Part shown: positions 10,769 through 29,912 of the stretch, piece by piece
Layout: each line of letters begins with the position of its first letter
How positions within the stretch are numbered: position 1 is the first letter of the stretch
Assembly: GCA_947478395.1 (NCBI GenBank)
Contig: CANJVR010000003.1
Coordinates: 352,001 to 416,000 of the forward strand
DNA length: 64,000 bases
From: Opitutia bacterium
Lineage (GTDB): Bacteria > Verrucomicrobiota > Verrucomicrobiia > Opitutales > Opitutaceae
Direction: 5' to 3'
Program-made: the position numbers and the translations under genes
Notes under the pieces: generated by a model
The model's database searches: none
What the model was told of the DNA's origin: nothing
The model's input: only the letters and a program-made list of their open reading frames with translations

Positions 10769-10816
10769 GATTTTGGGGGATTTAAGGAAAGGCTGTAGTG
10801 GGTGGAGCGGGAGCGG

Positions 10817-11681: not shown

Positions 11682-12416
11682 TCAGGCGGCGAGGTGGCCA
11701 TTTGCGTGGGCGGTTTCAAACCAAGCGGAAGGGGGTGAACCGGGCGCGAACTCCGGGCACGTCTCGGCGAGCAGTTTGCGAAGATTTTCGCGTGCGCGGG
11801 CGATGCGGCTCTTGACCGTCCCGACCTTGATGTGAAGCGCCTGCGCGATCGCCTCGTAGGAGTAGTGATGGATGTTGTGCAGCGTCAGAATCTCGCGCCG
11901 CTCGGCGGAGAGTCGCTCCATGCAGGTGGCGATGAGCGCGGAAAATTCCCCGTTAACGGCTTCGCGTGTGGGATCGGGCGCCTCTGAGGCGATGAGTTCG
12001 GTGAAGGTGGCGCCGGCGTGGGCTGTGAGCGGGTAGTCGAGCGAAAGCGTGGCGTGGCGGTGGCGCCGGACGTAATACCAGTAGCGGTTGCGCGCGAGAT
12101 TCGTCGCGATGTGGTGCAACCACGTGGCGAGCGAGCAGTCGCCGCGGAAACGGCCGAGACCGCGATGCGCCCGGAGGAATGTGTCCTGCGTGATTTCCTC
12201 GGCGTCGGCCCGGTCGTGGAGCATGCCGAGGACCTTCGCGAAAGTTTTCCGCTCGTGGCGGTGCATGATCTCGATGAAAGACGTCTCGTCGCCGCCGTTG
12301 AAACGGCGCACAAGCCCGGCATCGATGGCGGCTTCGCATTTAGCGGCGGCGTGTGGGCCGGCCTGATCGGCCGTGAACGAGTGCGGGGAGGCGGGGGTGG
12401 GGTGAACGGTGGACAT
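11682..12416 (-). CDS. ECF RNA polymerase sigma factor
   Basis: Region 2 DAEEITQDTFLRAH...LATWLHHIATN; region 4 YSYEAIAQALHIKVGTVKSRIARAR. Confidence 0.92.
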   Translation of the reverse strand: MSTVHPTPASPHSFTADQAGPHAAAKCEAAIDAGLVRRFNGGDETSFIEIMHRHERKTFAKVLGMLHDRADAEEITQDTFLRAHRGLGRFRGDCSLATWLHHIATNLARNRYWYYVRRHRHATLSLDYPLTAHAGATFTELIASEAPDPTREAVNGEFSALIATCMERLSAERREILTLHNIHHYSYEAIAQALHIKVGTVKSRIARARENLRKLLAETCPEFAPGSPPSAWFETAHANGHLAA

Positions 12417-12451: not shown

Positions 12452-13420
12452 TCAGGCCGCGCTGGCGAAGGAGAAGGAACTGCTGATGGACCGTGCGGAC
12501 TGGTGCAGCCGGTCGTGATAGCGCGAAGGCGATTCGCCGGCGATGCGGTGGAACACCCGGTTGAATTGCGAAAGCGACTGGAAGCCGGCCGCGAAGGCGG
12601 CCTCGCTCATGCGGGCGTGGGGATTGAGCAGCATATGCTTCACGGTCTCGACGCGTAGCCGCGCCAAGTACTCCGTAAACGTAAGGCCCGTCACCTTTTT
12701 GAAGACCTTGCAGAAATAAAACGCACTCATGTTGGCTACGCGGGCAACATCCGCGAGGGCCAGATCCTCGCTCTGTTGCGCCGCGATGAACGCGCGCGCC
12801 CGGGCGATGGCGGGCAATTCGGACTGTGCTTCGCTGACCATCACCTGATTGCTCAGCGAACCGAGGTGCTGGGCAAAAATTCCCAAGAGTCGAACGACGG
12901 AGTCGTAGTGTTTTTTCGCCACGACCCGAGTTTTGAAAAAAGCTGTTTCGAGCTCGTGACGGTCGACGCTCGATCCCCACTGGGTCAGTTGATTGGCGAT
13001 ACGGTTAAAATGGGTCCGTGAAGTTTTTTTCATGAATACCTGGCCCGTCTGCAAATAGCCGAGAACCTCGTTTCCGGCCCGCACCGGAATCGCGGATTCA
13101 GTCAGGCCGGCGAAGCACACCAGCGTTTTCGCCTCGGCGGCGGCTTCCGTTTCCACGCGCTGCTGGAGTTGCAGGCAGGCCGCGCACGATTTGTTGCTCG
13201 AGGCCAGCAGCGCGCAAAAGGCGTTGGCGTGCTTGGAGCCGTAAAGCGGGGATTGAAATGATCCTCGCTGCCGGAGCACCAGCGGCAGGCCCGTGGTAGC
13301 TTCGAAGGCCTTCTGGTATTCGCGAAAAATTTCGGAGCGCTGCAAATGCGGAATGGCACTGCGCTCGGCGGGGTTGCGGTCGTCCGCCGGCGTCGCGGAA
13401 ATCAGAGATGTGGTTCGCAT
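12452..13420 (-). CDS. AraC family regulator with N-terminal PocR sensory domain
   Basis: PocR Cys pattern NAFC...CAAC...CFAGL...GQV; AraC HTH MSAFYFCKVFKK...AGFQSLSQFNRVF. Alternative start at 13429. Confidence 0.9.
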   Translation of the reverse strand: MRTTSLISATPADDRNPAERSAIPHLQRSEIFREYQKAFEATTGLPLVLRQRGSFQSPLYGSKHANAFCALLASSNKSCAACLQLQQRVETEAAAEAKTLVCFAGLTESAIPVRAGNEVLGYLQTGQVFMKKTSRTHFNRIANQLTQWGSSVDRHELETAFFKTRVVAKKHYDSVVRLLGIFAQHLGSLSNQVMVSEAQSELPAIARARAFIAAQQSEDLALADVARVANMSAFYFCKVFKKVTGLTFTEYLARLRVETVKHMLLNPHARMSEAAFAAGFQSLSQFNRVFHRIAGESPSRYHDRLHQSARSISSSFSFASAA

Positions 13421-14560: not shown

Positions 14561-14771
14561 GGGATAAGCGGGTGGGCGTTTTTTTGATGCGGTTGGGGCC
14601 GATGCGACGATGCCGGAGTAAATGCGGGGCCCGGCATCCGAACGCAGAAGGGAAAAGCGATCGGGTGAAGTGCGGGCTGTGTCCCGGAGGAAGAGAACGC
14701 GGTTCACGGGATTGAGATGGTCGTCGCGGTCAGTCGGGCTGGACGATGCTGGGGCGGATAGCAGGGCGGGA

Positions 14772-15254
14772 TTATGCGCTGCGCAGGGTAGCTTCATTCA
14801 CGCCGGGAGCGAAGAACGCGCAGCCTGCTTCCTTGGCTAGGCGTTGCACGGTCTGTAGGCGCGGCGAATCCACGCGATCAGGCAAATCGGCGCGGCCAAA
14901 GAACGCGGCCACGGCGGTTGTGGCGTTGTGCCGCCCGGTCAGGCACTTTCCCAGCCAGCTTTCGACGGACAAAGGCAGCAGCCGGAGTACGCTGGACGTG
15001 GCGATGACGATCAAGTCGGCTTCGACCGCGGCAGCCATCGCGTGCGCCCGATACTCCGGATCCTCCAGCGTCGAAAAACTCCACGGCGACAAGTGCGGTT
15101 CCGGGCCGTCCGGAATCCGGCGGAGCAGCGCGGTAATAGTTTCCGCCGCCCACATCGCCGCGGCGATGTTTTCGTAGGCGAGGATAACGGTCATTTCGGC
15201 GGGCGTGCTGGCATCGGCGCAATCGAGTGCGGTCAAGGTGGCGGGGGTGTGCAT
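14772..15254 (-). CDS. Hypothetical alpha/beta protein
   Basis: Alternating strand/helix pattern (VILAYEN, WSF, ADLIVIA, AVAAFF); preceded by motif copy 2. Confidence 0.7.
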   Translation of the reverse strand: MHTPATLTALDCADASTPAEMTVILAYENIAAAMWAAETITALLRRIPDGPEPHLSPWSFSTLEDPEYRAHAMAAAVEADLIVIATSSVLRLLPLSVESWLGKCLTGRHNATTAVAAFFGRADLPDRVDSPRLQTVQRLAKEAGCAFFAPGVNEATLRSA

Positions 15255-15465: not shown

Positions 15466-16731
15466 GTGACGCGTAACGCTACGACGGTGCCGTCGAGAGA
15501 TTTTTCCACCCCGACCAAGGAAGAATTGATTGCGCGCTTGGAGCGTTTCGCGCGTGAGCGGACCGAATCCGAACGCGAACTGCGCGCCGTGGTGAAGGAG
15601 TTGCGCGCCGTGAAAGCGGCGCTCGACGAACATGCGATCGTCGCGATCACGGACGCGGCCGGAAAAATCACGTACGTAAACGACAAGTTTTGCGCGATTT
15701 CAAAAATCTCCCGCGAGGAATTGCTGGGCCAGAATCATCGCATCATCAACTCGGGCTATCACCCTAAGGAATTTTTTCGCAGTCTCTGGGCGACCATCAG
15801 CCGCGGCGAAATTTGGCATGGTGAAATCCAGAACCGTGCGAAGGACGGGGAGATTTATTGGGTCAATACCACGATCTACCCGTTTGTCAGCGAGGACGGA
15901 AAGCCGGTCCAGTACGTCGCCATTCGCACGGACATCACGCAGCGCAAGGCGGACGAAATTGAACTGCAGCAATTCGCATCCGATCTGGCGGAAAAGAACA
16001 AGGAGCTAGAGGCGATTGTTTATACCGTGTCGCACGATCTGCGTTCGCCGCTGTTGAACGTCCAGGGCTTTGCGCGGCAGCTCGCGCAGGCGTGCGCTTC
16101 AATCCAAGGGGCGACCGCCGCGGCGCACGACGGCCTGGTTCCAGTCGCCGCGTTGAAGGCACCGCTCGAAACCACCATTCCGCAGGCGCTGCGGTTCATC
16201 AGCGCGGGCGTGCACAAAATGGAGATGCTGCTCGCCGGTTTGCTGCGCTACTCACGCTTGGGCCGGATGACGTTGAACATCGGCCCGATTCCCATGAACG
16301 AGCTGCTGGCGGAAATCGTCGCGGCGATGAGGTTCCAGATCGATCAGGCGGAGGCCGAAATCGTAGTCGATCTGCTCCCCGCCTGCCGCGGCGATCGCAC
16401 CCAAACCAATCAGGTTTTTTCCAACCTGATCGACAACGCGCTGAAGTTTCGCGATCCGGCCCGGCCGCTGCGGATCACGGTGACGGGTGGCATCGCCAGC
16501 GGGAAGGCGCTTTATCAGGTGGCGGACAACGGGATTGGCATTGCTCCCTCGCACCAGGCGAAGGTTTTCGAAATCTTTCATCGGTTGGACCCGGAGAAAA
16601 CGACCGGCGAGGGCCTCGGATTGACGATCGCCCAGCTCATCCTCGACCGGCAGCACGGCGGGATCAGGGTCGAGAGCCAGCCGGGCCAGGGTTCCAGTTT
16701 TTTCGTTTCCCTTCCGGCCGTCGAATCCTAG
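15466..16731 (+). CDS. PAS-domain cytoplasmic sensor histidine kinase
   Basis: [20 protein letters not shown]...[23 protein letters not shown]-box [29 protein letters not shown]. Start uncertain. Confidence 0.92.
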
Positions 16732-16747
16732 GCGGCCGCCCCCAACT

Positions 16748-17203
16748 ATGAAAAACGCCCCGACTATTTTGATCGTCGATGACGATGAAGGTCATGCGAT
16801 CCTGATCCGACAAAATCTGGAGCTGGCTGGTTTGAGTAACCGCATGGAGCATTTCTGGAATGGGCAGGAAGTTTTAGATTTTCTTTTTCTCCGTCAGCCC
16901 GACCGCTCCCGAGAAATTGGGGAAAATTATCTAGTCCTGCTCGATATGCGCATGCCGAAGGTCGACGGCGCGGAAGTCCTGCGGCAGATCAAGGCGGATC
17001 CGGAGTTACGCAAGCTGTCGGTCATCATGTTGACGACGACGGAGGACGCCCGCGACGTGGAGCGGTGCCACGAATTGGGGTGCAGCGTGTACGTGCAAAA
17101 GCCGGTAGACTACGACCGGTTTACCGAGGCGGTCCGCCGGCTCGGGCTTTTCGTGCCGCTAATGCTGACGCCACCGTTGAACGGGCCGCCGGCGAAGTCC
17201 TAG
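16748..17203 (+). CDS. Single-domain response regulator (Rcp1-like)
   Basis: ILIVDDD, LLDMRMPKVDG, MLTTT, YVQKP. Confidence 0.92.
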   Translation: MKNAPTILIVDDDEGHAILIRQNLELAGLSNRMEHFWNGQEVLDFLFLRQPDRSREIGENYLVLLDMRMPKVDGAEVLRQIKADPELRKLSVIMLTTTEDARDVERCHELGCSVYVQKPVDYDRFTEAVRRLGLFVPLMLTPPLNGPPAKS

Positions 17204-17205
17204 TT

Positions 17206-18255
17206 ATGGCCAGGTCCGTCACGCCGCCGCTGATTCTGATCGTCGATGACGACGAGGGTCTTCGCATTCTGATGGCGGACGCTTTTCGCCACGAAGGATG
17301 CGAGGTGGCGACAGTCGATTCGGGGGGCGCGGCCCTGGCGTGGCTGGAGACCCGGACGCCGGCTTTGATGTTGCTTGATCTGAAGATGAAGGACCTCGGT
17401 GGCCCGGCGTTAATCGAGCGGCTCAAGCAGGAAAATTCCCTGGTGCCGTTTGTCGTCGTGACCGGACAAGGCGACGAAAACGTCGCGGTCGAAATGATGA
17501 AACAGGGTGCGCTCGACTACGTGATGAAGGACACGGGGCTGCTCGACCGGTTACCGATCGTGGTTAAACGCGCACTGGATGTGCTAGAGCGGAACCGGGC
17601 GCTGGCGGAGGCCGACACCGAAAGGGGGCTGCTGCAGAAGGAGATCGTTGAGATCAGTGAACGGGAGCAGCAACGCATCGGTCAGGATTTGCACGATGGT
17701 CTCGGGCAGCAGTTGACGGCGATCGAGATGCTGTGCGCAGGTCTTAAGAGTGATGTCGGGTCGCAGCCGGCGCTTAAGAAACAAGTGGAGCTGATCGCGA
17801 AATCGATCCGCGAGGCGATCACGTTTGTCCGTCGGGTATCGCGCGGACTGGCGCCGAAGAACGATGAACCCCGTGCGCTGGAAGGCAGCCTGACCGCACT
17901 CGCCGAGCTTTCGAATTCCCTGGGATCCACGCGGTGCTATTTTGAGTGCCCCGAGCCCGTCGTCATCGACGATGGGGTGAAGGCCGGATCGCTTTACCGG
18001 ATTGCGCAGGAAGCGGTGAACAATGCGCTCAAGCACAGCGGCGCTGGGGAAATCGTGGTGAGTCTCACGCAAACGGTCGAAGCCGTGAAACTCCGCATTT
18101 CCGACAACGGCGGCGGTTTCGACCAACGGAGCGGGAGTGGCATGGGGCAGCAGGTGATGAAACACCGCGCCGCCAGCATCGGCGCGGAATTGAAGGTCGA
18201 TTCGAAGGCTGGCCACGGCGTGTCGGTTACCTGCATCCTGCCCCGAGCGCTATGA
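17206..18255 (+). CDS. REC + HisKA_3 hybrid histidine kinase
   Basis: N-terminal receiver; EREQQRIGQDLHDGLGQ; YRIAQEAVNNALKHS; DNGGGF. Confidence 0.92.
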   Translation: MARSVTPPLILIVDDDEGLRILMADAFRHEGCEVATVDSGGAALAWLETRTPALMLLDLKMKDLGGPALIERLKQENSLVPFVVVTGQGDENVAVEMMKQGALDYVMKDTGLLDRLPIVVKRALDVLERNRALAEADTERGLLQKEIVEISEREQQRIGQDLHDGLGQQLTAIEMLCAGLKSDVGSQPALKKQVELIAKSIREAITFVRRVSRGLAPKNDEPRALEGSLTALAELSNSLGSTRCYFECPEPVVIDDGVKAGSLYRIAQEAVNNALKHSGAGEIVVSLTQTVEAVKLRISDNGGGFDQRSGSGMGQQVMKHRAASIGAELKVDSKAGHGVSVTCILPRAL

Positions 18256-18962
18256 AACAGCCTAGAAAAAATTCGGCTGCGGCGAAAGTGGCCGTCCAGC
18301 CCCAGACGCCGGAGCGCAAAAAAATTCTGCTGGTGGACGATCATCCCTTTATGCGGGCCGGGGTGGCTCAGTTGATCGATAAACAGCCCGATCTGGTCGT
18401 ATGCGGAGAGGCCGGCGACCCGGGCGCCGCCATGGGTGTGCTCGCGAAAACGAAAGCCGACCTGGTGCTCTCCGATATCACCATGCCGGGACGCAGCGGT
18501 CTCGAGTTCATCAAAGATCTTTTGGCGCAGTATCCCAACCTGCCCATCATCGTGCTTTCGATGCATGACGAAATAATTTACGCCGAACGAGCGCTGCGCG
18601 CCGGCGCGCGTGGTTACATCATGAAGGAGGCCGGCGGAGAAAATCTCTTGGCCGCGATCCGGCAGGTTTTGGGCGGACAGGTCTATGTGAGTCTCAAAAT
18701 GTCGGCGAACATCTTGGATAGTTTCTCCGGCCGGAAATCCCGGGATTCAAACTCGCCATTTGGCAAACTCACGGACCGCGAGTTCGAGGTGTTTCAGCTC
18801 GTCGGCCAGGGGAAAAGCACGCGGGACATCGCCGCGCAATTGAATCTTAGCCCCAAAACGGTCGATGTGCACCGCGGGCATATCAAAGAAAAATTAGATT
18901 TGAAGGATTCCACCGCCCTCGTTCGGCATGCAATCCGGTGGGTGGAAACCTCGAAGGGGTGA
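18252..18962 (+). CDS. NarL/FixJ (LuxR-HTH) response regulator
   Basis: VDDHP, DITMPG, LSMH, LTDREFEVF...LSPKTVDVHRGHIKEKL; ATGA overlap with the upstream gene. Confidence 0.94.
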   Translation: MKQPRKNSAAAKVAVQPQTPERKKILLVDDHPFMRAGVAQLIDKQPDLVVCGEAGDPGAAMGVLAKTKADLVLSDITMPGRSGLEFIKDLLAQYPNLPIIVLSMHDEIIYAERALRAGARGYIMKEAGGENLLAAIRQVLGGQVYVSLKMSANILDSFSGRKSRDSNSPFGKLTDREFEVFQLVGQGKSTRDIAAQLNLSPKTVDVHRGHIKEKLDLKDSTALVRHAIRWVETSKG

Positions 18963-19045: not shown

Positions 19046-19861
19046 TCATGATTTGGCGGCGGACGGCTTGTCGGTGGTGGCCGGCGCGCGGGTCGGGGAG
19101 GGAGCCGGTGGGGTGTGGCTAAAACTATTTTCCAGCCGCTCGATTTTTTCGCGCAACAGATGCACCTCGCGAATGAGGTGATGAATCTCGGATTCTTCCT
19201 TGAGCTGGGCTTTCTCGAGAAAAAAAGTTGCGACGTAGGCGGTGAACGTCCCGAAGAAGCTCAACCCGAAGACCACCAGAATCACGGCGACCACGCGACC
19301 GGTGGCCGTCACCGGGTAGTGGTCGCCGTAGCCGATGGTGGTAATCGTGGCGAACGCCCACCATAGCGCATCGCCTGCGGAGTGGATGTTTGATCCGGCG
19401 ACACCGTGCTCGAGCTCGAAAACTGCGATGGTTGCGAACAACACGGCGACCAGTGACATCAATCCCACCATAACAAACGTCCCCTTTGCCCGCTCGGTCG
19501 AGAAATGTTCGTAAACGGCGGCGAAGGATCGGAGGGCCCGCAGAATCCGGAGAACCCGGAACACGCGCCCCCACCGCAGCCAGCTGATTTCAGGAATGCT
19601 CGACAGCAGATCGATCCAGCCGCTGCGCAGAAACCGGCGCTTCGACGGCGCGAGCCAGAGATGGACGGCAAAATCCGCGAGGAAGACTGCGCACACGCCG
19701 TGATCGATCCGGCCGAGGAGGCGACGCGTTTCCGGGTCGACCGGCACGAGTAATTCCGCGGTGAGTGCGCCGAGCGAATAGAGCGAGAGCAAGAGCACCA
19801 GCAGCTCCAAGTAAATCACGCGGCCGTTGAGTCGGGCGGCTTCCCGGAGGCTAAGGCTCAT
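19046..19861 (-). CDS. Voltage-gated-type potassium channel
   Basis: Arg-rich S4 (RWGRVFRVLRILRALR), WWAFATITTIGYGD selectivity filter. Confidence 0.92.
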   Translation of the reverse strand: MSLSLREAARLNGRVIYLELLVLLLSLYSLGALTAELLVPVDPETRRLLGRIDHGVCAVFLADFAVHLWLAPSKRRFLRSGWIDLLSSIPEISWLRWGRVFRVLRILRALRSFAAVYEHFSTERAKGTFVMVGLMSLVAVLFATIAVFELEHGVAGSNIHSAGDALWWAFATITTIGYGDHYPVTATGRVVAVILVVFGLSFFGTFTAYVATFFLEKAQLKEESEIHHLIREVHLLREKIERLENSFSHTPPAPSPTRAPATTDKPSAAKS

Positions 19862-19952
19862 GGAGCAAAGGTTGTGAACTGAAGGAGGAAGATTCCGGCG
19901 GCGGCGGTAAAGCTGGCCGCCGAATCGCCAAAGGCGATTCCAACCCTCCGCG

Positions 19953-19993
19953 CCGCAAGATCTGCACAGCCTTGGCCAACCCGCGCGGAGCCC
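19953..19993 (+). promoter_or_regulatory. 41-bp motif copy X (putative AraC-type tandem site) upstream of nitroreductase
   Basis: 33/41 identical to 21410-21450; followed after 17 bp by TAGATT. Confidence 0.65.
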
Positions 19994-20079
19994 AGGCTAA
20001 TTTTTTGGACTAGATTGCTCTCCCGGACCTGGCTGGCGCGCCGTGATCGACCGATTCCCCGTCGAACAATATTACCCTC

Positions 20080-20655
20080 ATGGAGACCATAGAATCGATT
20101 TATCACCGCCGCGCGGTGCGCCACTACACGCCTGAAGCGGTGCAACCGGCGGTGCTCATGCAATTGCTCGATGCGGCGGTGCAGGCGCCGAGCCCGTTGA
20201 ATTCCCAGCCGTGGTCCTTCGCCGTTTTCTGCGGCCGAGCGCGGCTCGCCGGCTTTTCGACGCGGATCAAAGAGCATTTGCTGCTCACTCTGCCTTCGAC
20301 GTGTGATTTGCACGAACATGTCGATCGGATGAACCGGCCCGAATACGATGCGTTTCACGGCGCGCCGGCCCTGGTGCTGATTTGCGCTAAACCGCAGGGA
20401 TATTCGCGGGAGGAGTCCTGCGCGTTGGCCGCCCAGAATCTGATGCTGGCTGCGCACGCTTCGGGACTCGGCACCTGTCCGGTGGGCTTTGTGCGGTCTT
20501 GGTTTCGATTGCCGCACATCAAGGACGAGCTGGATATCCCGGGAACGCACCTTCCGATGTTTCCGTTGGTCGTCGGGCATCCGGATGGGCGACCCGCGCC
20601 GCCGAATCATAAAAGGCCTGAAATTTTGGTTTGGGCCGATGGCGCGAGTGGGTGA
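20080..20655 (+). CDS. Nitroreductase family protein
   Basis: IYHRRAVRHY, APSPLNSQPW, AQNLMLAAHASGLGTC. Confidence 0.92.
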   Translation: METIESIYHRRAVRHYTPEAVQPAVLMQLLDAAVQAPSPLNSQPWSFAVFCGRARLAGFSTRIKEHLLLTLPSTCDLHEHVDRMNRPEYDAFHGAPALVLICAKPQGYSREESCALAAQNLMLAAHASGLGTCPVGFVRSWFRLPHIKDELDIPGTHLPMFPLVVGHPDGRPAPPNHKRPEILVWADGASG

Positions 20656-20665
20656 AGACGGTGGG

Positions 20666-21055
20666 TCATGTTCGCGCTCGTGGCGCGTGAGCCACCGAGA
20701 AGCGAGTCCAAGGGAGCGCACGGAGGCGTTCCGCCGGAATCGGCTGGTGACTGGCGAGGCAGATGCCGTAGGTCCCCGCCAGCAGCCGCTCCAATGCGGC
20801 GTCCACCTCGGCGAGGTGGTTCGCCTCCGATTTCACCTCGGAGATGAGATTTTCAAATTCGCTTTCGTCGGTGGCGCGGTCGCCGAAACCTGAATCGGTT
20901 TTTTCCAACGCCCCGGCTGCGGTCAGGTGGTCACGGGTTTTTCCCTGCAACTCGGCGCGCAGGCGTAGCAGCGTTTTCAAATGCCACTGCCATTTTGTCG
21001 GAATGCAGAATTTGGCCGCGGGGTTTGCGTTAGGTTTACGTGAGCGGGAGGTCAT
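20666..21055 (-). CDS. DksA/TraR family RNA polymerase-binding factor, single-Cys type
   Basis: GDRATDE coiled-coil tip; EVDAALERLLAGTYGICLAS..PIPAERLRALPW. Confidence 0.85.
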   Translation of the reverse strand: MTSRSRKPNANPAAKFCIPTKWQWHLKTLLRLRAELQGKTRDHLTAAGALEKTDSGFGDRATDESEFENLISEVKSEANHLAEVDAALERLLAGTYGICLASHQPIPAERLRALPWTRFSVAHAPRART

Positions 21056-21323
21056 GGGATGATTGGGCGTGAAGGCGAGAATTCGAGTTCGACGGCTGGA
21101 CTTCGGCGGTCGCAGAAATGGGGTGGCGTTGGCCCAGTGAGCAGAACGCACCGACTTCGTTTTGGGCGATCGTGCGGATGATCACGGAGAATTCGGTCAC
21201 AGAAGGGTCGCGCTCGCCGGCATCGAGCGCCGGCAGGGCGGCCTGCGACAGCACGAGCGCCTCCCGGTGCGCGCGGATGGTTGGGCGTCGGGAGCGCGAT
21301 GTCCGCACGAATTTTTCTCGCAT
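21036..21323 (-). CDS. Possible leaderless hypothetical protein upstream of dksA
   Basis: ATG 6 nt after the predicted -10 of motif copy Z; no recognised domain. Confidence 0.3.
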   Translation of the reverse strand: MREKFVRTSRSRRPTIRAHREALVLSQAALPALDAGERDPSVTEFSVIIRTIAQNEVGAFCSLGQRHPISATAEVQPSNSNSRLHAQSSHDLPLT

Positions 21324-21352
21324 GAGATGACTGTGCCATTCGCGGCGCTTTC

Positions 21353-21393
21353 TGGCTCCGCACCGATTGGCGAACCATGCGCATGTTTTGGCT
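21353..21393 (-). promoter_or_regulatory. 41-bp motif copy Z (inverted) facing the dksA unit
   Basis: Reverse complement 26/41 identical to copy Y, keeps GCCAA-N5-GCGGAGCC; followed after 17 bp by CACAGT in an extended -10 context (TGnCACAGT). Confidence 0.55.
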
Positions 21394-21409
21394 GAGCCGA
21401 TTTTGCCCA

Positions 21410-21450
21410 CCGCAAGAAACGCACAGGCTCCGCCAAGCCACGCGGAGCCC
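21410..21450 (+). promoter_or_regulatory. 41-bp motif copy Y upstream of the DUF2934-cco operon
   Basis: CCGCAAGA-N3-GCACAG-N5-GCCAA-N4-CGCGGAGCCC; followed after 18 bp by TACAGT in an extended -10 context (TGnTACAGT). Confidence 0.65.
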
Positions 21451-21498
21451 GCCTCCCGCCGCGTTTGCTACAGTGGTGGCCATCAACCCGCACCATTC

Positions 21499-21708
21499 AT
21501 GAAAAATAACTCCGCCGTGCTGCACGAACCCACCGAGGCCGAAATTCAACATCAGGCGTACCTCATTTGGTGTGAAGGGGGCTGCCGCGACGGCACCGCC
21601 TTGGAGGACTGGCAAGCTGCCCAAGAGTTGCTGCGGCACCGGCATGGCCGGGCCCATCCGGCGCCCAAAATACTCGCAGGCAAACGGCCCGCGCTCGGCG
21701 CTCGCTGA
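21499..21708 (+). CDS. DUF2934 domain protein
   Basis: EIQHQAYLIWCEGGCRDGTALEDWQAAQELL. Confidence 0.85.
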   Translation: MKNNSAVLHEPTEAEIQHQAYLIWCEGGCRDGTALEDWQAAQELLRHRHGRAHPAPKILAGKRPALGAR

Positions 21709-21717
21709 ACCACGGCT

Positions 21718-21975
21718 ATGGCCGTCGTACCACTCACCCTCACGATCAGTCTCTGCCTCGTCGTCACCTTCCTGGTTTTTTTCCTCTGCGAGCACGCGCG
21801 CGGGCGCCTGAGCAGTGCGGAACGCGATTCCCTGCTCCCGCTTGGCGATGAAACGCCCCACTTCGCCGCCGCGAAATCAGCCGCCGAGCCGAAGGCCAAG
21901 GCGCACGGCAGCGGCTGCGGCTGCCACGACGGCTTCCGCCCGCCGTGCCCCGGCTGCTTGAAACACCACGACTGA
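21718..21975 (+). CDS. ccoS: CcoS/FixS-like cbb3 maturation protein with Cys/His-rich tail
   Basis: N-terminal TM, AERDSLLPLGDE, position just before ccoN. Confidence 0.6.
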   Translation: MAVVPLTLTISLCLVVTFLVFFLCEHARGRLSSAERDSLLPLGDETPHFAAAKSAAEPKAKAHGSGCGCHDGFRPPCPGCLKHHD

Positions 21976-21990
21976 TTTCAATTTTTTCCC

Positions 21991-24318
21991 ATGTCCGACA
22001 AGAAAATCACCCTCGAGTTTAACGACAAAGTCGTACGCCAGTTCCTGCTCGCCTCCGTCATTTGGGGCGCCGTGGGCATGATCGTGGGCGTGCTGATCGC
22101 GTCGCAGCTCAACTTCTGGCGTCTCAATTTCAACCTGCCGTGGCTCACCTTCGGCCGGTTGCGACCCCTGCACACCAACGCGGTCATTTTCGCACTCGTG
22201 GGCAACATGATGTTTGCCGGCGTTTATTATTCCACCCAGCGGCTCGTGAAGGCGCGGCTCGCGAGTGATTTTCTCTCGGCGCTGCACTTCTGGGGCTGGC
22301 AGGCCATCATCGTCGCCGCCGCGATCACGCTCCCGCTCGGGTTCTCCCGCGGCAAGGAATACGCGGAGCTGATCTGGCCGATCGACATCGCCGTCACACT
22401 CATCTGGGTCGTGTTTGCGGTGAATTTTTTCTGGACGCTCGCGCGCCGGCGCGAGCCGAGCCTCTACGTCGCGATCTGGTTCTACATCGCGACGATCGTC
22501 ACCGTGGCGATGCTCTACATCGTCAACCATCTCTCGTTGCCGACGAGTTTGGTGCACAGCTATCCGCTTTTCGGCGGGGTGCAGGATGCGCTCGTGCAGT
22601 GGTGGTACGGGCACAACGCCGTGGCGTTCTTCCTCACCACACCGATCCTCGGCATCATGTATTACTTTCTGCCGAAGGCGGCGGAACGTCCGGTGTATTC
22701 CTACCGGCTCTCGGTGATTCATTTCTGGTCGCTCGTCTTCGTCTACATCTGGGCCGGTCCGCATCATTTGCTGAACACCGCACTGCCCGGCTGGCTGCAA
22801 AATCTCGGCATGACCTTCTCGCTCATGCTCTGGGCCCCGTCATGGGGCGGCATGCTCAACGGCCTGCTCACGCTCCGCGGCGCCTGGCACAAACTCCGCA
22901 CCGATCCGGTTCTGAAATTTTTCGCGGCCGCGGTCACATTTTACGGCATGGCGACGTTTGAGGGGCCGCTTCTCTCAATCAAGTCGGTCAACGCGCTCGC
23001 GCATTACTCCGACTGGATCATCGGCCACGTCCACGCCGGCGCCCTCGGCTGGAACGGCTTCATGGCGGCAGGCATGTTCTACTGGCTCGTGCCGCGGCTC
23101 TGGAGCAAACCGCTCCACTCGGTCGCGATGGCCAACCTGCACTTCTGGATCGGGACGGTCGGCATTCTCCTCTACGTTGCGGCGATGTGGACGAGTGGGA
23201 TCACGCAGGGCGTGATGCTCAACGCCACCACCGACGGTGGCACCGTCCTCGCTTACCCCAACTTTCTCGATACGCTTAATGCCATTCGATTCATGATGCT
23301 GATGCGCGTCGTAGGGGGCGCGCTGTATTTCACCGGTTGGTTGCTCATGGCTTTCAACCTCTGGAAAACCATCCGCCACGCCCAGCCGGTCAACGGCACG
23401 ATCGAGGTGTTCGAAGATGAGCCGGTCGCCGCCGCCGCCGAAACCGGACTCTCGGTGCTCGGCACTTTCCTCAACCCGCCCGTGCTGTTCTCGATCTTCG
23501 GCATCGCATTCGCGAGCGCGTGGATGTTTGGCAATCATCTCCTGAGCGTCGCCGGTCTCGTCGGTCTGATGCTCAGCGTCATTCTCGCTTACTCGCATTT
23601 CGAGTCGCGCGGCAAAGCCTGGGCGGGATGGTACGACCGGCTCCTCGTGAATTCGCTGCCGTTCACCTTGCTGACGTTGCTCGCGGTGGTCGCCGGCGGG
23701 CTGATCCAGATCATCCCGACGGTGCTCGTCGAGAAAGCCGTGAATCTCGAGGACCGTCGGCAGATTCCTTACACGCCGCTCGAACTCGCCGGTCGCGATC
23801 TCTATGTGCGCGAGGGCTGCTATAACTGCCATTCACAGATGATCCGTACGCTCGTCCCGGATGTCCTCCGCTACGGCGACTATTCGCGCCTCGGCGAATC
23901 GATCTACGATCATCCATTTCAATGGGGCTCGAAGCGCACCGGTCCGGATCTCGCCCGCGAAGGCGGGAAGTATCCGAACATCTGGCACCTCCGCCACCTT
24001 GAGGACCCGCGCGGCATTTCCCCCGGATCGAACATGCCGAACTATCCCTGGCTCATCGCGGCCACGCTCGATACGAGCACGCTGTCCAAGAAGATCGCCG
24101 CCCAACGCGCGATTGGCGTGCCGTATCCGAACTGGACGCCCGAGCAAATCGCCACCCGCGTCGACGAGCAAGCGAAGGCCATCGCTCAGGATCTGCGCAC
24201 CGCCGGCGCCTTTGTCGCACCGGACAAAGAGGTCATCGCGCTCATCGCCTACCTTCAAAAGTTGGGCTCCTACGAGATCGTGCGCGGCGGGCCGACAAAA
24301 GTAGCGGGTAGCGAATAG
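21991..24318 (+). CDS. ccoNO: cbb3-type cytochrome c oxidase fused subunits I/II
   Basis: FGRLRPLHTN, QWWYGHN, WAGPHH, WIIGHVH; CcoO part EGCYNCHSQMIR, WGSKRTGPDL, SNMP. Confidence 0.97.
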   Translation: MSDKKITLEFNDKVVRQFLLASVIWGAVGMIVGVLIASQLNFWRLNFNLPWLTFGRLRPLHTNAVIFALVGNMMFAGVYYSTQRLVKARLASDFLSALHFWGWQAIIVAAAITLPLGFSRGKEYAELIWPIDIAVTLIWVVFAVNFFWTLARRREPSLYVAIWFYIATIVTVAMLYIVNHLSLPTSLVHSYPLFGGVQDALVQWWYGHNAVAFFLTTPILGIMYYFLPKAAERPVYSYRLSVIHFWSLVFVYIWAGPHHLLNTALPGWLQNLGMTFSLMLWAPSWGGMLNGLLTLRGAWHKLRTDPVLKFFAAAVTFYGMATFEGPLLSIKSVNALAHYSDWIIGHVHAGALGWNGFMAAGMFYWLVPRLWSKPLHSVAMANLHFWIGTVGILLYVAAMWTSGITQGVMLNATTDGGTVLAYPNFLDTLNAIRFMMLMRVVGGALYFTGWLLMAFNLWKTIRHAQPVNGTIEVFEDEPVAAAAETGLSVLGTFLNPPVLFSIFGIAFASAWMFGNHLLSVAGLVGLMLSVILAYSHFESRGKAWAGWYDRLLVNSLPFTLLTLLAVVAGGLIQIIPTVLVEKAVNLEDRRQIPYTPLELAGRDLYVREGCYNCHSQMIRTLVPDVLRYGDYSRLGESIYDHPFQWGSKRTGPDLAREGGKYPNIWHLRHLEDPRGISPGSNMPNYPWLIAATLDTSTLSKKIAAQRAIGVPYPNWTPEQIATRVDEQAKAIAQDLRTAGAFVAPDKEVIALIAYLQKLGSYEIVRGGPTKVAGSE

Positions 24319-24393
24319 GTCGAACCACGAAGGACCGACTCCCGCGCCCCGCTTTTCCTCCGCCTTCTCCACCCATTCCTTCTTTTCCCTCCC

Positions 24394-24591
24394 GTGTTCA
24401 AACGACTCGTCTTTGAAGAATCCGCTGCGCTGTTCACCATCACCGCTTTTGTCACCGCGGTCTCGATCTACGTCGCCGTCACTTGGCGCGCCGTGCGGAT
24501 GAAGCGTCCGCAACTTGAGCGCTTTGAGAACCTGCCTTTCGCCATCGCCACGCCCGCCGCCGTCCATGACACCGACCAACTTTCCGCCTGA
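24394..24591 (+). CDS. ccoQ: CcoQ-like small subunit
   Basis: Single TM followed by ERFENLPF; lies between ccoO and ccoP. Confidence 0.6.
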   Translation: MFKRLVFEESAALFTITAFVTAVSIYVAVTWRAVRMKRPQLERFENLPFAIATPAAVHDTDQLSA

Positions 24592-25144
24592 AGACACCGA
24601 TCGTCTCCGTCACCACCGCTTCGACGGCATTCAGGAATTCGACAAGCGCCTCCCAAACTGGTGGCTGATGACACTCTACGGCTCGATCCTCTTCTGGGTC
24701 GGCTACTGGGGTTACTACCAATGGCTGAAAGCCGGCCCGGACGGCCCGCAGGAAATCACGCTGGCGATGAGCCGGATTGAGGCGGCGCGCCTCGCCTCGG
24801 CGCCGACGACGGACGATCCCAGCCTTTGGAAAATGAGCCGCAACCCCGTGATCGTCGAGTCGGGCCGGGCCACATTCAACACCACGTGCGCAAGCTGTCA
24901 TACCGACAAGCTCACCGGCGCGATCGGCCCCAACTTGGTCGACCGGCTCTGGATTCACGGCGGCAAACCCGCGGAAATCTACGTTACGGTGGACAAGGGC
25001 GTGCTCGCTAAAGGCATGCCGCCGTGGGGCCCCATCCTCGGCCCCAAGAAAGTCAGTGAGGCCGTCGCTTATATTCTCAGTTATCACACCGAAGGAGAAC
25101 CCATCGAGGTGCAGGCCGCGTGGATTCCCGTGCTGCCGAAGTGA
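24566..25144 (+). CDS. ccoP: cbb3 subunit III, short mono-haem form
   Basis: HRFDGIQEFDKRLPNWW, one CASCH, GPNL, GMPPW. Confidence 0.9.
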   Translation: MTPTNFPPEDTDRLRHHRFDGIQEFDKRLPNWWLMTLYGSILFWVGYWGYYQWLKAGPDGPQEITLAMSRIEAARLASAPTTDDPSLWKMSRNPVIVESGRATFNTTCASCHTDKLTGAIGPNLVDRLWIHGGKPAEIYVTVDKGVLAKGMPPWGPILGPKKVSEAVAYILSYHTEGEPIEVQAAWIPVLPK

Positions 25145-25174
25145 CGCGTACATTCGCGCCGTTTCTCCTTCGTC

Positions 25175-26617
25175 ATGTCCCCTCCCGTTGCTCCGCCGCC
25201 GAACCGCGATTCTGTCACCACGATTGCGGCCGATGGCTCGCGGCGTTTGCTCTATCCGGCGGACACCCACGGTAGATTCACGCGCGCGCGTCAGTGGTCG
25301 GCCGCAGGGCTGATCGTATTCTACCTTTCGCTGCCGTGGATCAAAGTTAATGGGTATCCGGCGGTATTCCTCGATATCACGGAGCGGCGCTTCCACCTCT
25401 TCGGCCTCACGCTGGCGGCGCAGGATCTCTGGCTGATGTTTTTCCTGATCACGGGCGTCGGCTTCTCGCTCTTCTTTATCACGGCGTTGTTGGGACGCAT
25501 CTGGTGCGGCTGGGCTTGCCCGCACACGGTATTCCTCGACCACGTGTACCGCCGCATCGAACGCTGGATCGACGGCGATGCGGTCAGCCGCCGTGCGCTC
25601 GCCGCGGCGCCGCTGACGGCCGGAAAGTTTTTCAAACGCGCGCTGAAGCATACGCTCTACGTGCTCGTCTCGGCGGTGATCACGCACCTATTCCTCGCCT
25701 ACTTTGTTTCTCTGCCGGCCGTGTGGGCGATGGTGAGCGCAGCGCCCGTGGAGCATTGGAGCGCGTTTGGCTTCGTCGCGGTCTATACCGGCGGGCTCTA
25801 TTTCAACTTCGCCTGGTTTCGAGAGCAGCTCTGTATCGTCATCTGCCCGTACGGCCGCATCCAGTCGGCCTTGATCGACGACAACTCACTCGTGATTGGC
25901 TACGACGCGAAGCGCGGCGAACCCCGCGGGAAAGTGGGCCCGCCGAACGCCGGCGCGTGCGTCGCTTGCAACCGCTGCGTTCAGGTCTGCCCCACCGGCA
26001 TCGATATCCGGCAGGGCCTGCAGATGGAGTGCATCGGCTGCACGGCGTGCATCGATGCGTGCGACGACGTGATGGACCGGCTGCATCGTCCGCGGGGGCT
26101 GATTCGCTACGACTCGCAAACCGCCTTCGCCGGCAAAACCACCCGCTGGCTGCGGCCACGCACAATTTTATACGGCGTCCTGCTCACCGTGGGCGCGACC
26201 GTCGCGACTTGGGCGCTGTCGACGGTACGACCAGCCAATCTTGGCGTCACTCGGATCACGGGCGCGCCCTACATCGTCAGTGCGGACTTTGTGCGGAATC
26301 AGTTTCTCGTGCGTCTGGTCAACAAGCGCAACGAGCCCGCGCGCTTCGTGCTCCGCGTCGGGGACGCGCCGGCCGCACTTCGGCAGACCGGCCTGACCTC
26401 GACCATCGAAGTCGCCGCGCTCGCCGAGATAGTCCAGCCGTTGGTACTGCAGATGCCGCGTGCGGCGTACACCGGTCCGTTTCACTTCGAGATGCGCGTG
26501 CGGGACGAGGCGGGGACGTTTCACCTGGAACGCACCGCGGAGTTTCTCGGGCCGGAAGCGCGTTTATTGCGGGAAGACGAGGAGGATGAAAAACGTGAGC
26601 ACGAATCCAAAAAATAA
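25175..26617 (+). CDS. ccoG: cbb3 accessory 4Fe-4S protein
   Basis: GRIWCGWACP, CIVICPYGR, CVACNRCVQVCPTGIDIR, CIGCTACIDAC. Confidence 0.95.
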   Translation: MSPPVAPPPNRDSVTTIAADGSRRLLYPADTHGRFTRARQWSAAGLIVFYLSLPWIKVNGYPAVFLDITERRFHLFGLTLAAQDLWLMFFLITGVGFSLFFITALLGRIWCGWACPHTVFLDHVYRRIERWIDGDAVSRRALAAAPLTAGKFFKRALKHTLYVLVSAVITHLFLAYFVSLPAVWAMVSAAPVEHWSAFGFVAVYTGGLYFNFAWFREQLCIVICPYGRIQSALIDDNSLVIGYDAKRGEPRGKVGPPNAGACVACNRCVQVCPTGIDIRQGLQMECIGCTACIDACDDVMDRLHRPRGLIRYDSQTAFAGKTTRWLRPRTILYGVLLTVGATVATWALSTVRPANLGVTRITGAPYIVSADFVRNQFLVRLVNKRNEPARFVLRVGDAPAALRQTGLTSTIEVAALAEIVQPLVLQMPRAAYTGPFHFEMRVRDEAGTFHLERTAEFLGPEARLLREDEEDEKREHESKK

Positions 26618-26741
26618 ACCGTCGCGTCTCTGGATCTGGTTCGCCGCGGCTTGCATAGTGCAGGTCGCGGTCTGGACGGGATGGATTGTTTTCGCGTCGA
26701 AGCACCGCGTGGCCGAGGTACCGTTGGCGACGGCGCGCTGA
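26595..26741 (+). CDS. Small single-TM protein in the CcoH/FixH position
   Basis: GGAGG 9 nt before GTG; LWIWFAAACIVQVAVWTGWIVFA. Confidence 0.55.
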   Translation: MSTNPKNKPSRLWIWFAAACIVQVAVWTGWIVFASKHRVAEVPLATAR

Positions 26742-26743
26742 CC

Positions 26744-27439
26744 ATGGAACTCGCCTCGATCAATTCGACCGGCGCTGCGTTTGTTGCCGGACTTGTCACG
26801 AGTCTGCATTGCGCGGGGATGTGTGGACCGCTGGCGTGTTCGCTCATGCCGCGCGGGCCGGAGCGTTCGAGTGCCGATGCGATCAGCACGACGTATCATC
26901 TTTCACGTTTGACCGCGTATGGCGTGCTTGGAGCGCTGGCGGGCGGACTCGGGCGCGCGCCACTTTCGTGGGTATCGCAGTCGGCGCTGCGTTGGCTGCC
27001 GTGGTTCACGGTGGTGCTGTTTCTGGCGATCGCGTTTCGCTGGGACCGGCATCTGCCGAAGATCGCGCTGCTCGGTCGCGGAGTTTTGAAATTGCAGACG
27101 TGGATGCAGGGTCGTTCGCGGGTGCAGGCGGCCGCAGTCCTTGGGTTTGCCACGCCGTTGCTGCCGTGCGGGCCGCTCTATTTTCTGGTCGCGTTGGCGT
27201 TGTTGTCGGGCTCGGCGCTGCGCGGGGTGGAGTTCATGGTGGCCTTCGGGCTCGGGACGGTGCCGTTGCTGTGGGTCGCGCAATCGCAATTTTTCTGGCT
27301 GCGAACAAAACTTTCGCCGCGGGCGATGGATGGTGCGCGTCAGACGCTCGCGCTCGCGGCGGCGTTGGTGGTTGCGTGGCGGCTGCGGGGCACGCTCGGT
27401 TTCGTCGGACCGGATCCGGCGTCGTGGATTTGTTTTTGA
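26744..27439 (+). CDS. DsbD_2 / TauE-SafE-like membrane protein (cbb3 biogenesis)
   Basis: SLHCAGMCGP, LLPCGPLY, FGLGTVP. Confidence 0.88.
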   Translation: MELASINSTGAAFVAGLVTSLHCAGMCGPLACSLMPRGPERSSADAISTTYHLSRLTAYGVLGALAGGLGRAPLSWVSQSALRWLPWFTVVLFLAIAFRWDRHLPKIALLGRGVLKLQTWMQGRSRVQAAAVLGFATPLLPCGPLYFLVALALLSGSALRGVEFMVAFGLGTVPLLWVAQSQFFWLRTKLSPRAMDGARQTLALAAALVVAWRLRGTLGFVGPDPASWICF

Positions 27440-27440
27440 G

Positions 27441-29912
27441 ATGAGCGCGGCGGCCAATTTTCTGGACGTGGGCGGGGTGCCCTCACCCCGCATTGGGGGC
27501 GTCGAGCGGGGTCGGGGCACCCCGCCCACAGTTGGGAGAAAGCCATCCGTGACTTGCCGCCACTGCGGTGCCGTGCTGCTCGACGCCCGCATGCAGGAAT
27601 CCGGCTTCTGCTGCGTCGGCTGCGCCTACGTTTTCCGTCTCGTGCAGGAGCACGGCCTCGACGGCTATTACCGGATCAAGGACGAGATCACTGCGCCCGC
27701 GGATGCCGCGGTGTTTGAGTCTCGCGATTTCGGTTGGCTGGAAAGCGCGCAACGGGCAGCGGAGGATGCGACAAAAGAAATTCCGGGACTCACGCTCGAC
27801 GTTCAAGGCCTCTCGTGCGCCGGTTGCGTTTGGCTGATCGAGCGGATCTTTCAGCCTCTGCCGGGAGCGCGGGATATATTCGTCAACGCGCAGTACGGTT
27901 CGATGCGGCTGCGCTGGCAGCGCGGCGAATTTTCCGCGGTGGAGTTCGCGCGCAAGCTTCAGGGTTTCGGTTATCTCGTCGGGCCGGCCGGCGTGCATCC
28001 GGCTGAGCCGCAGAGCCGCGGGCTGGTGAAACGCATCGGGCTCTGCACGGCCTTCGCGATGAACGTCATGCTGTTCACGCTGCCGGCGTACTTCGGCATG
28101 GCGCCGACGTTTACTTATGCGCCGTTGTTTGGGCTGCTCTCGCTGGTGTTCGCGACGCTGAGCTTGCTCACGGGCGGAATTTATTTTTTTACGCGAGCGG
28201 CGCAGGCCTTGCGAGCCCGCGCGCTCAGCATCGATCTGCCGATCGCGCTCGGCATCGCCGGCGCCTACACGGGCTCGCTCTACGGCTGGTTCGCCGCGCA
28301 GGAACGCTTCATCTACTTCGATTTTGTTTCGGCCTTCATTCTCTTGATGCTCGTGGGACGTTGGGCGCAGGTCGCGGCGGTCGAGCGGAACCAGCGACGC
28401 TTGCTCTTACTGCAACCGCGCCCGCACGCGGTGAGGCTGGCCGATGGCCACACCGTTTCGCCGGAAAGTCTGCTCGGCCACGAAACGATGTTCATCGCTT
28501 CGGGTAATCTCGTCCCGGTCGAGGCGCGACTCGTGACGTCGAAAGCGGAGTTCTCGCTCGCGTCGATCAACGGCGAAGCCGAGCCGCGGTTGTTTTCCGC
28601 CGGTCAGCGTGTGCCCTCGGGCGCGATGAACGTGGGACGCGAGGACGTGTCACTCGTTGCACTCCAAGCGTGGGGCGAATCGCTGCTCGCGCAGTTGACG
28701 GCCCCGGCTGGAGCGTCGGGCTGGCGGCATGCGTTCCTGGAAAAAATTGTGCGCGGCTATCTCGCTGGGATTTTGCTCGCGGCCGCGCTGGCCGGCGTGG
28801 CGTGGTGGCTGGCGACCGGCGACGCGGTGCGGACGTGGGCGGTGGTGACTGCGACGCTGGTCGTGTCCTGCCCATGTGCCGTCGGACTCGCGTTTCCCCT
28901 CGCTGATGAAATGGCCACCGTGGCAGCGCGCCGGCGCGGCGTGTTTGTGCGCGAGGGCGAGTTGTGGGCGAAGCTCGGCCGTATCAGAAAAATCGTCTTC
29001 GACAAAACCGGGACGCTCACGTCGGAGACGCCGCAGCTGCAAAACCCCGAGGCCTTGGGCGCGTTGTTGCCCGAGCAACGCGCGGCTTTGCTCGCGCTCG
29101 TGCGGGCGCAATCGCATCCCGTGAGCCGGTGCCTGAGCGAGACCTTGCTCGCCGAGGCCGGCGGAAACGTGCTTGAAGGCGAGGTGCGTGAGACGGTGGG
29201 ATTTGGCGTCGAACTCGGAGATTGGTCGCTCGGTCGCAGCGGATGGCGCGACGCCAACGCGCCGGGTGATGAAACGGTGTTCGCGTTCGCCGGACGCGCG
29301 CTCGCGCGCTTTCGCTTCAGCGAGGCGATGCGCGCCGATGCGCGCGCCGAAGTGGCCGCACTTCGTGCGCGTGGATTTGAGGTGCACATTCTCAGCGGTG
29401 ATGCGCCGACAAAAGTCGAAGCGTTGGCGACGGCCCTCGGCTTGCCGTCCGCGCACGCTCGCTCGGCGATGTCGCCGCAGGAAAAGGCGGCGTGGCTCGA
29501 CGAGCACGGTGCAACCGACGCGTTGATGTTGGGCGACGGGGCCAACGATAGTCTGGCGTTTGATCGTGCGCTTTGTCGTGGCACGCCGGTGGTCCATCGC
29601 GGCGTGCTGGAGCGGAAGGCCGATTTTTATTATCTCGGCGGTGGCATTGGCGGGATTCGCGCTCTTATCGGGATCAACGCCGTGCGCCGCCGCACGCAGC
29701 GGATCATTTTGGGCTTCTCGATCCTCTACAATCTTCTCGCCGTCGGGCTCGCGGTGGCCGGCCAGATGAACCCGCTGCTCGCCGCCGCATTGATGCCGCT
29801 GAATTCGCTTCTGACCTTGGCGCTGGTGACGGCGGGAATGCGTTCCGCCTTTCGCGTCGAACCCAAGGATAAATCCCTTCCAGTCCAACTGGGCCAGACC
29901 GCGAGGGTTTGA
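27441..29912 (+). CDS. ccoI: CcoI/FixI P1B-type Cu ATPase
   Basis: CRHCG...FCCVGC, HMA CAGC, SCPCA, DKTGT, GDGAND. Alternative GTG start at 27549. Confidence 0.92.
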   Translation: MSAAANFLDVGGVPSPRIGGVERGRGTPPTVGRKPSVTCRHCGAVLLDARMQESGFCCVGCAYVFRLVQEHGLDGYYRIKDEITAPADAAVFESRDFGWLESAQRAAEDATKEIPGLTLDVQGLSCAGCVWLIERIFQPLPGARDIFVNAQYGSMRLRWQRGEFSAVEFARKLQGFGYLVGPAGVHPAEPQSRGLVKRIGLCTAFAMNVMLFTLPAYFGMAPTFTYAPLFGLLSLVFATLSLLTGGIYFFTRAAQALRARALSIDLPIALGIAGAYTGSLYGWFAAQERFIYFDFVSAFILLMLVGRWAQVAAVERNQRRLLLLQPRPHAVRLADGHTVSPESLLGHETMFIASGNLVPVEARLVTSKAEFSLASINGEAEPRLFSAGQRVPSGAMNVGREDVSLVALQAWGESLLAQLTAPAGASGWRHAFLEKIVRGYLAGILLAAALAGVAWWLATGDAVRTWAVVTATLVVSCPCAVGLAFPLADEMATVAARRRGVFVREGELWAKLGRIRKIVFDKTGTLTSETPQLQNPEALGALLPEQRAALLALVRAQSHPVSRCLSETLLAEAGGNVLEGEVRETVGFGVELGDWSLGRSGWRDANAPGDETVFAFAGRALARFRFSEAMRADARAEVAALRARGFEVHILSGDAPTKVEALATALGLPSAHARSAMSPQEKAAWLDEHGATDALMLGDGANDSLAFDRALCRGTPVVHRGVLERKADFYYLGGGIGGIRALIGINAVRRRTQRIILGFSILYNLLAVGLAVAGQMNPLLAAALMPLNSLLTLALVTAGMRSAFRVEPKDKSLPVQLGQTARV
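27468..27529. repeat. REP doublet (REPIN-like), GTGG-headed
   Basis: 24-bp inverted arms 27468-27491 and 27506-27529 (2 mismatches); each arm is itself a hairpin, GCGGGGTG-CCCT-CACCCCGC. Confidence 0.8.

Follow-up and report, generated by a model that had tools for sequence, protein, structure and literature searches.

A family-wide promoter element of the Opitutaceae and a PocR-domain AraC-type protein as its candidate activator

The DNA analysed here is a 64,000-nucleotide stretch of an Opitutaceae genome (contig CANJVR010000003.1), called the window below and the frame of all coordinates unless a contig is named; its source genome, G000, is 3.3 Mb long and 98.8% complete. The window holds three copies (X, Y and Z) of a direct-repeat motif that precedes nitroreductase, cbb3 oxidase and dksA/traR-type genes and is a genuine, family-wide promoter element. 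Judged by sequence, its best candidate binder is a 322-residue AraC/XylS regulator with a PocR domain (12452..13420, minus strand), which quite probably activates the cbb3 operon along with further genes that are likely required when oxygen is low. A preliminary description of this DNA had named the same protein as owner of the operator, a proposal that now gains support from co-occurrence, linkage and co-variation; the FNR-like character of the target set had been overlooked there.

The conserved core of the motif measures 36 bp, shorter than the 41 bp first given, and is composed of two 15-bp half-sites, CAA-N4-YGCRSAG, joined by a 6-bp linker, with the 21-bp period originally counted between the CAA boxes. 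Site X lies at 19956..19991 on the plus strand (half-sites 19956-19970 and 19977-19991; 44.6 bits with the cross-genome matrix introduced below) and is followed, at the same offset as in relatives, by the -10 hexamer TAGATT of the nitroreductase promoter (20011..20016, plus strand), with a predicted start near 20023. Site Y (21413..21448, plus strand; half-sites 21413-21427 and 21434-21448; 42.8 bits) precedes TACAGT (21469..21474, plus strand), one base beyond the usual distance, with a predicted start near 21481. Back-to-back with Y stands site Z on the minus strand (21355..21390; half-sites 21390-21376 and 21369-21355; 37.8 bits), whose CACAGT (21330..21335, minus strand) leads to a start predicted on the A of an ATG, at 21323, and hence to a putatively leaderless transcript. 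The spacings to the three hexamers are 17, 18 and 17 bp for X, Y and Z, as the preliminary description had it. It had also placed the motif over the -35 position, and the second half-site does overlap this position by 4 bp at a 17-bp spacer (in X, the position is 19988-19993). No consensus sigma70 promoter was found in 19800-22100. A proximal half-site that overlaps -35 in a promoter without a consensus -35 is the arrangement of a class II activator site, and the half-site tables of 69 sites display the two-box direct repeats of the AraC/XylS type.

As reported before, X and Y agree without gaps at 33 of 41 positions (19953-19993 and 21410-21450); when the 2-kb region was resampled 200 times under a Markov model, the best direct 41-mer pair reached 24-29, and nowhere else in the genome does X or Y have a match above 27/41. 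The 26/41 identity of Z (21353-21393) to Y had been counted correctly and is equalled by X/Z, but it does not exceed chance, either by the resampled copies or in the genome, where 13 positions match Y at 26. CACAGT alone is, moreover, a weak -10. Support for Z comes instead from matrix scores: with a matrix made from X and Y only, it is outranked by a single genome position, namely a fourth copy of the motif. This site, W, lies outside the window (G000:C1:54032-54067, plus strand), with a perfect TATAAT 17 bp on, itself followed after 8 nt by a USP gene, and the count of three copies is amended accordingly. W is recovered by a matrix from X, Y and Z alone, which carries no information from W itself. 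In G000, the cross-genome matrix picks out X, Y, Z and W and no others at 35-45 bits, the next position scoring 16; only four copies, every one with a -10, exclude a dispersed repeat. Searches for structured RNA returned a single Rfam match at chance level (19.3 bits against 76.9 needed).

The spread of the motif was followed in a family set of 150 genomes with a pattern built from the four G000 sites, one mismatch being permitted and the reversed pattern serving as control. It matches 115 of the 150 genomes, with 374 hits against 8 for the control; phylum-wide, 17/20 family genomes match, against 15/230 outside the family, which is near control level. The cross-genome matrix was made from 69 sites in loci L002-L071 (70 were read, and one contig-edge hit was dropped), and its reversed form gave no hits. 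In the 70 sites, a -10 (A 84%, T 80%) stands at positions 56-61, the pattern itself ending at 35. The form nAnnnT is found at the exact offset in 56/70 sites and in 0-9 at 31 other offsets, which bears out the earlier link to promoters, and the hexamer is sigma70-like (A at -11, T at -7). A start codon follows the -10 by at most 9 nt in 39 of 76 strong sites from the same loci, which suggests that many transcripts in the family are leaderless.

The PocR-AraC regulator is the sole PocR-domain protein of G000 and is present in 122 of the 150 family genomes. Co-occurrence tables were restricted to the 126 genomes with a completeness of at least 90%, where regulator and motif are found together in 97, the regulator alone in 10, the motif alone in 6 and neither in 13, the regulator accompanying 97 of the 103 motif-positive genomes. 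When at least two sites are demanded, the corresponding counts are 78, 29, 1 and 18. In a high-quality subset of 20 genomes, the identical 17 carry both regulator and motif.

Linkage was surveyed in 40 AraC-centred 20-kb loci, hand-picked from roughly 180 matches so as to cover a spread of genera on long contigs. A site is found in 33 of them and ccoNO in 26, and in 27 a site of at least 18 bits lies no more than 700 bp from the AraC gene. Conservation upstream of orthologous cco operons, which the preliminary description had set as a check, was assessed in 20 held-out regions ranking high among 116 cco hits, a sample that is therefore biased toward close relatives; none had been used in the matrix. 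All 19 usable regions of AraC-positive genomes score 26-45 bits at 420-730 bp, the 20th being incomplete. Nine cco genomes lack the regulator, and here the six full-length regions all stay below 8 bits, two regions are incomplete, and one (G042) scores 19.3.

Motif and protein also vary together. In two sister families (f3 and f4), ccoNO and an AraC homolog diverge from each other in 7/7 loci (L149-L155), and a variant site lies between the genes. In this site the TGCG boxes, the period and the -10 are preserved and the CAA boxes altered, GAGACA occupies the -35 position, and TG often precedes the -10. All seven sister proteins have STRHFCK in place of SAFYFCK in the first helix-turn-helix (HTH1), while S284, Q285 and R288 of the second (HTH2) are unchanged, which suggests HTH1 as the reader of the CAA box and HTH2 as that of the promoter-proximal one. 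The variant motif is present as a single copy in each of five sister-family genomes searched, further copies being excluded there. Weaker related sites stand beside homologs in two further families (22 and 21 bits in G195, 28 bits in G295), and no site was found at four other non-family loci. Within the family, a quick tree, which includes one unrelated AraC and serves only to describe subgroups, divides the regulators into kinase-linked and cco-linked proteins with near-identical recognition helices.

Several observations weigh against the PocR-AraC protein as binder and activator of this regulon. The search pattern was derived from X, Y, Z and W, so that their recovery by the matrix is independent only in part; full independence holds for the -10 signal and for the columns that the pattern left free. 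The genomes are related by descent, which makes the co-occurrence counts only descriptive, and the seven variant sites, being orthologous promoters, are likewise non-independent. Seven of the 40 AraC loci have no site, and G000 itself has its AraC in the kinase-linked rather than the cco-linked subgroup, with recognition helices that match the latter. Among eleven extra AraC-positive genomes, mostly picked for few or no hits, the cco site is absent in eight, weak in two and strong in one; AraC-positive genomes without a cco site are G009, G021, G037, G038, G077, G105, G115 and G136. The 19.3-bit site of G042 precedes cco in an AraC-negative genome, which is 80% complete. G000 lacks orthologs of hemN and PFOR, two targets in relatives, and its own regulon therefore amounts to four promoters. 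Lastly, five genomes that are 96-98% complete have a pattern hit but no PocR-AraC (G114, G145, G032, G058 and G040). The hit in G040 is weak (16.2 bits), whereas the others are good sites, before USP in G114 (30.7 bits) and G145 (36.8), before hemN in G032 (35.2), and at 40.8 bits in G058. All five also lack ccoNO, and in G058 a strong divergent site pair (L020/L175, G058:C8:64020-64207) precedes a copy of ORF160, a small cysteine-containing protein described below, that is broken after 40 codons. On these two grounds, AraC-less sites would fit relics or assembly gaps, loss or non-assembly of the AraC-cco island being the simplest though unproven reading, and the G058 pair is likely a decaying regulon relic.

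The same AraC-less sites, together with the subgroup of the G000 protein and the ten AraC-positive genomes of at least 90% completeness without a pattern hit, could mean that some other family-specific regulator binds the motif and that PocR-AraC is only a passenger of the cco island. This is improbable: the site is absent where cco occurs without AraC (0/6 full-length regions), motif and recognition helix co-vary in the sister families, both subgroups carry near-identical helices, the 15+6+15 layout resembles that of XylS, and the only other regulator cluster that recurs among the 40 AraC loci is a LuxR cassette. The response regulator of this cassette, or else a Crp/Fnr protein, might itself be the binder, for the target set is FNR-like, the PAS domain of the cassette has its nearest solved relatives in 3ewk, Aer and NifL, and a Crp-type HTH lies near the island in a few genomes. 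The LuxR ortholog, however, is found in 35/150 genomes and missing from 71 of the 103 motif-positive ones (in the 126 genomes, LuxR and motif together 32, LuxR alone 1, motif alone 71, neither 22). HTH_Crp_2 has no matches in G000, with a control that was positive in 14/14, and no FNR/CRP consensus occurs in 40/40 cco upstream regions of relatives, where exact matches only were scored. Crp/Fnr and LuxR families, moreover, bind inverted repeats, and a binder from either is very unlikely.

No better placed is the idea that the motif is an extended promoter of the ECF sigma factor encoded at 12416-11718 (11718..12416, minus strand), directly 3' of the AraC gene in G000. Close ECF orthologs, defined by a cut-off of E<=1e-63 that was our choice, occur preferentially alongside the motif (in 68 of 74 genomes) and are present in the AraC-less G114, G145 and G032. 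They are nevertheless missing from 35 of the 103 motif-positive genomes (together 68, ECF alone 6, motif alone 35, neither 17), a distant paralog is near-universal, motif-free genomes included, and a weak ECF homolog occurs in merely 1/40 AraC loci, so that the gene is not both linked to the motif and co-occurring with it. The -10 is also of the sigma70 type, and a sigma factor could not reach as far as the distal half-site at about -67 to -53, which leaves this proposal a very small chance. Both the ECF sigma factor and the LuxR regulator thus fit worse than PocR-AraC. ORF160 was rejected as binder, as it is internally deleted in G000 and present in only 91/150 genomes.

If PocR-AraC is the binder, two monomers would bind head-to-tail, one per half-site, each recognising the CAA box by its HTH1 and the YGCGSAG box by its HTH2. 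Of the two, the monomer nearer the promoter would cover -35 and recruit the housekeeping sigma70 polymerase in the manner of a class II activator, probably with E273 as the sigma70 contact. This residue is invariant and aligns with D241 of RhaS: the RhaS profile is aligned at offset 32, so that 273 corresponds to 241 barring an indel. Activation would follow a low-oxygen cue, which most likely enters via the GAF-like PocR domain, either through a redox-sensitive cofactor or through a bound fermentation product. Where a flavin-type PAS kinase cassette adjoins, as in G000, this cassette may add control of the AraC level.

The predicted structure of the regulator (pLDDT 87.8) combines a GAF-like N-domain, with a best Z of 8.8 to the NifA GAF domain, and an AraC double HTH C-domain (Z 12-15); the PocR domain has no solved relative by sequence. 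C69, C79, C82 and C102 are invariant in 35/35 aligned proteins, and the four-cysteine pattern occurs in 103/150 wider homologs. It is shared, to the detriment of a low-oxygen reading, by Listeria PocR, the regulator of a propanediol locus (C...CxxC...C). The cysteines thus allow a redox cofactor but do not show oxygen sensing, and the low-oxygen reading rests on the target genes. The His of the PocR motif CHAG is Phe in 35/35 aligned proteins, which suggests a ligand site different from that of PocR. In nine loci (L034, L035, L038, L047, L050, L051, L060, L068 and L070), the kinase-linked AraC gene is head-to-head with the PAS kinase gene. The PAS domains nearest to that of the cassette, those of 3ewk, Aer and NifL, have a flavin redox role, and the PAS-kinase/LuxR cassette is possibly an upstream redox input rather than the binder.

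What the regulon answers to is a further question. Direct sensing of oxygen or redox state by the PocR domain is a tentative proposal, given about the same minority weight as a variant, compatible with the main reading, in which PocR-AraC binds the motif and the regulon responds to a metabolite or to general stress. For the latter variant speak the cysteines common to Listeria PocR, the double role of USP, DksA, DUF2934 and nitroreductase as general stress genes, and the company that PocR-domain regulators keep with propanediol and other microcompartment loci (PMC4207490). Against it stand the low-oxygen functions of the recurrent targets cbb3, hemN and PFOR, and the Phe in place of the CHAG His, which suggests another ligand site. 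The remaining weight falls to control by the level or a partner of the regulator. A more specific and slightly more doubtful form of oxygen sensing would have the four-cysteine domain hold an oxygen-labile iron-sulfur cluster or a redox-switched metal. PocR-AraC would then sense oxygen directly, as a counterpart of FNR with a separate evolutionary origin in a GAF-like fold and the DNA-binding domain of an AraC protein, and would run the microoxic regulon of the family with ORF160 as feedback partner.

As the preliminary description stated, X is followed by a nitroreductase gene (20080..20655, plus strand, PF00881), which is lineage-specific, with a homolog in 1/40 AraC loci. The cbb3 cluster assigned to Y does lie downstream (fused ccoNO, ccoP-like, ccoG/fixG, a DsbD_2 protein and a heavy-metal P-type ATPase; 21991..29912, plus strand), but the first gene encodes a DUF2934 protein (21499..21708, plus strand, PF11154) and the next a conserved small protein of 85 residues (21718..21975, plus strand). 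The latter has homologs in 24/40 AraC loci and no Pfam or NCBIfam hit; it is called ccoS-like here, a provisional label that no family match backs. Short intergenic gaps and the lack of a separate site before ccoNO make it likely that DUF2934 through the P-type ATPase form one transcript from Y. Similarly, the dksA/traR-family gene given as the target of Z (20666..21055, minus strand; PF01258; NCBIfam below cut-off; start read from the sequence) is indeed behind this site, but as second gene, after a 95-residue reading frame (21036..21323, minus strand) that is an internally deleted copy of the four-cysteine protein ORF160 (hhalign 97.5% to the ORF160 alignment).

ORF160 proteins have about 160 residues, four invariant cysteines (CxC, CxxC) and no Pfam family (intact, for example, at L011:946-1467, minus strand); the G000 copy lacks the middle ~65 residues. 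As to their fold, Atlas leads point weakly toward RsbRD_N/globin-like proteins. The gene is usually tail-to-tail with AraC and downstream of the motif, and the usual layout in relatives continues with two back-to-back sites, of which Z/Y is the equivalent, and DUF2934-ccoS-like-ccoNO. A survey of downstream genes in relatives (129 hits, including overlaps between loci; 34 + 12 proteins scanned) gave as targets DUF2934/ccoS-like/ccoNO, ORF160, USP, hemN, PFOR and DksA/TraR, as well as a DHODH-like protein, acetyl-CoA hydrolase/transferase, and mono- and multiheme cytochromes c. Orthologs of site W precede USP genes in G114, G145 and G034. PFOR, the DHODH-like gene and acetyl-CoA hydrolase/transferase recur beside AraC, often with their own sites (L036, L046, L047, L057, L060, L062, L071, L164 and L165), and possibly constitute a fermentative module.

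Other genes of the region complete the picture. Between the AraC gene and the sites lies the cassette of PAS kinase, response regulator, RR-kinase and LuxR-type regulator (15466..18962, plus strand), and a potassium-channel-type gene (19046..19861, minus strand) is divergent from X; a site facing this gene was rejected, with a best score of -7.8, as was AraC autoregulation in G000, where the best score upstream of the AraC gene is -19.9. A direct repeat, atgcgatc, with a 10-bp period is present upstream of the AraC gene (13587-13604) and could serve another regulator. Small genes of stress type or of no assigned function flank AraC on the minus strand (9699-11539 and 13943-15254; DUF883, holin-X-like, and four without a family hit), with no motif upstream of them where tested. 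The ECF sigma factors belong to a family-wide group of two subtypes, one of which is near-universal (145/151 genomes at E<=1e-45).

The motif precedes genes that FNR switches elsewhere, under what would be a different regulator, so these Verrucomicrobia have likely built a low-oxygen response from another kind of protein. If true, this would be a clean convergence, with an unrelated regulator family in charge of almost the whole FNR target set. No description of the regulator of the Verrucomicrobia low-oxygen response, nor of this motif/AraC system, was found in the literature searched, most subscription papers being outside its reach. For most genomes of a single large family, the analysis yields a precise operator, a candidate protein, predicted starts and a list of targets, and it offers a tractable model for a sensory domain without a solved relative by sequence. 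DNA recognition is textbook AraC/XylS, which limits the surprise of the finding.

Among known systems, XylS and RhaS have the AraC-type double HTH fold in common with the candidate. At Pm, XylS binds a pair of 15-bp direct repeats with two boxes each, as here (PMC5481539). At PrhaBAD, RhaS has a 4-bp overlap with -35 and D241 as its sigma70 contact (PMC9429829), which is matched by the overlap here and by the acidic HTH2 residue at the D241 position. The box sequences are different, a PocR/GAF-like sensor replaces the cupin sugar or benzoate domain, and a dispersed multi-operon regulon stands against a single catabolic operon. PocR of Salmonella and Listeria has the same domain order (PF10114 followed by the AraC HTH) and likewise a four-cysteine pattern. 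Identity to the Listeria protein, however, is 26%, with CFAG for CHAG and a shorter cysteine spacing, and the score against the PocR equivalog NF047788 is 84.2 bits with a cut-off of 500. Neither pdu nor cob genes were seen among the genes recurring in at least 4/41 loci or among the scanned downstream genes.

The closest likeness in targets is to FNR, a Crp-family dimer that binds a TTGAT-N4-ATCAA palindrome, in contrast to the direct repeat and AraC-family candidate here, in a genome where no Crp-type HTH was found. The FixLJ-FixK cascade has a PAS kinase and a LuxR/FixJ-type regulator, which likewise stand beside one AraC subgroup in nine relative loci, but the PAS domain here resembles the flavin type and not heme FixL, and the LuxR cassette occurs in only 35/150 genomes. 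The system is neither PocR proper nor, judged by its regulator and its box, an FNR regulon. Its targets across genomes are nevertheless largely those of the FNR/FnrL/FixK regulon of Alphaproteobacteria, for which a regulon prediction gives cbb3 subunits, FixG, the P-type ATPase, uspA, hemN (oxygen-independent coproporphyrinogen oxidase) and dksA, with the regulator gene adjoining the cco cluster, as here (PMC2908626).

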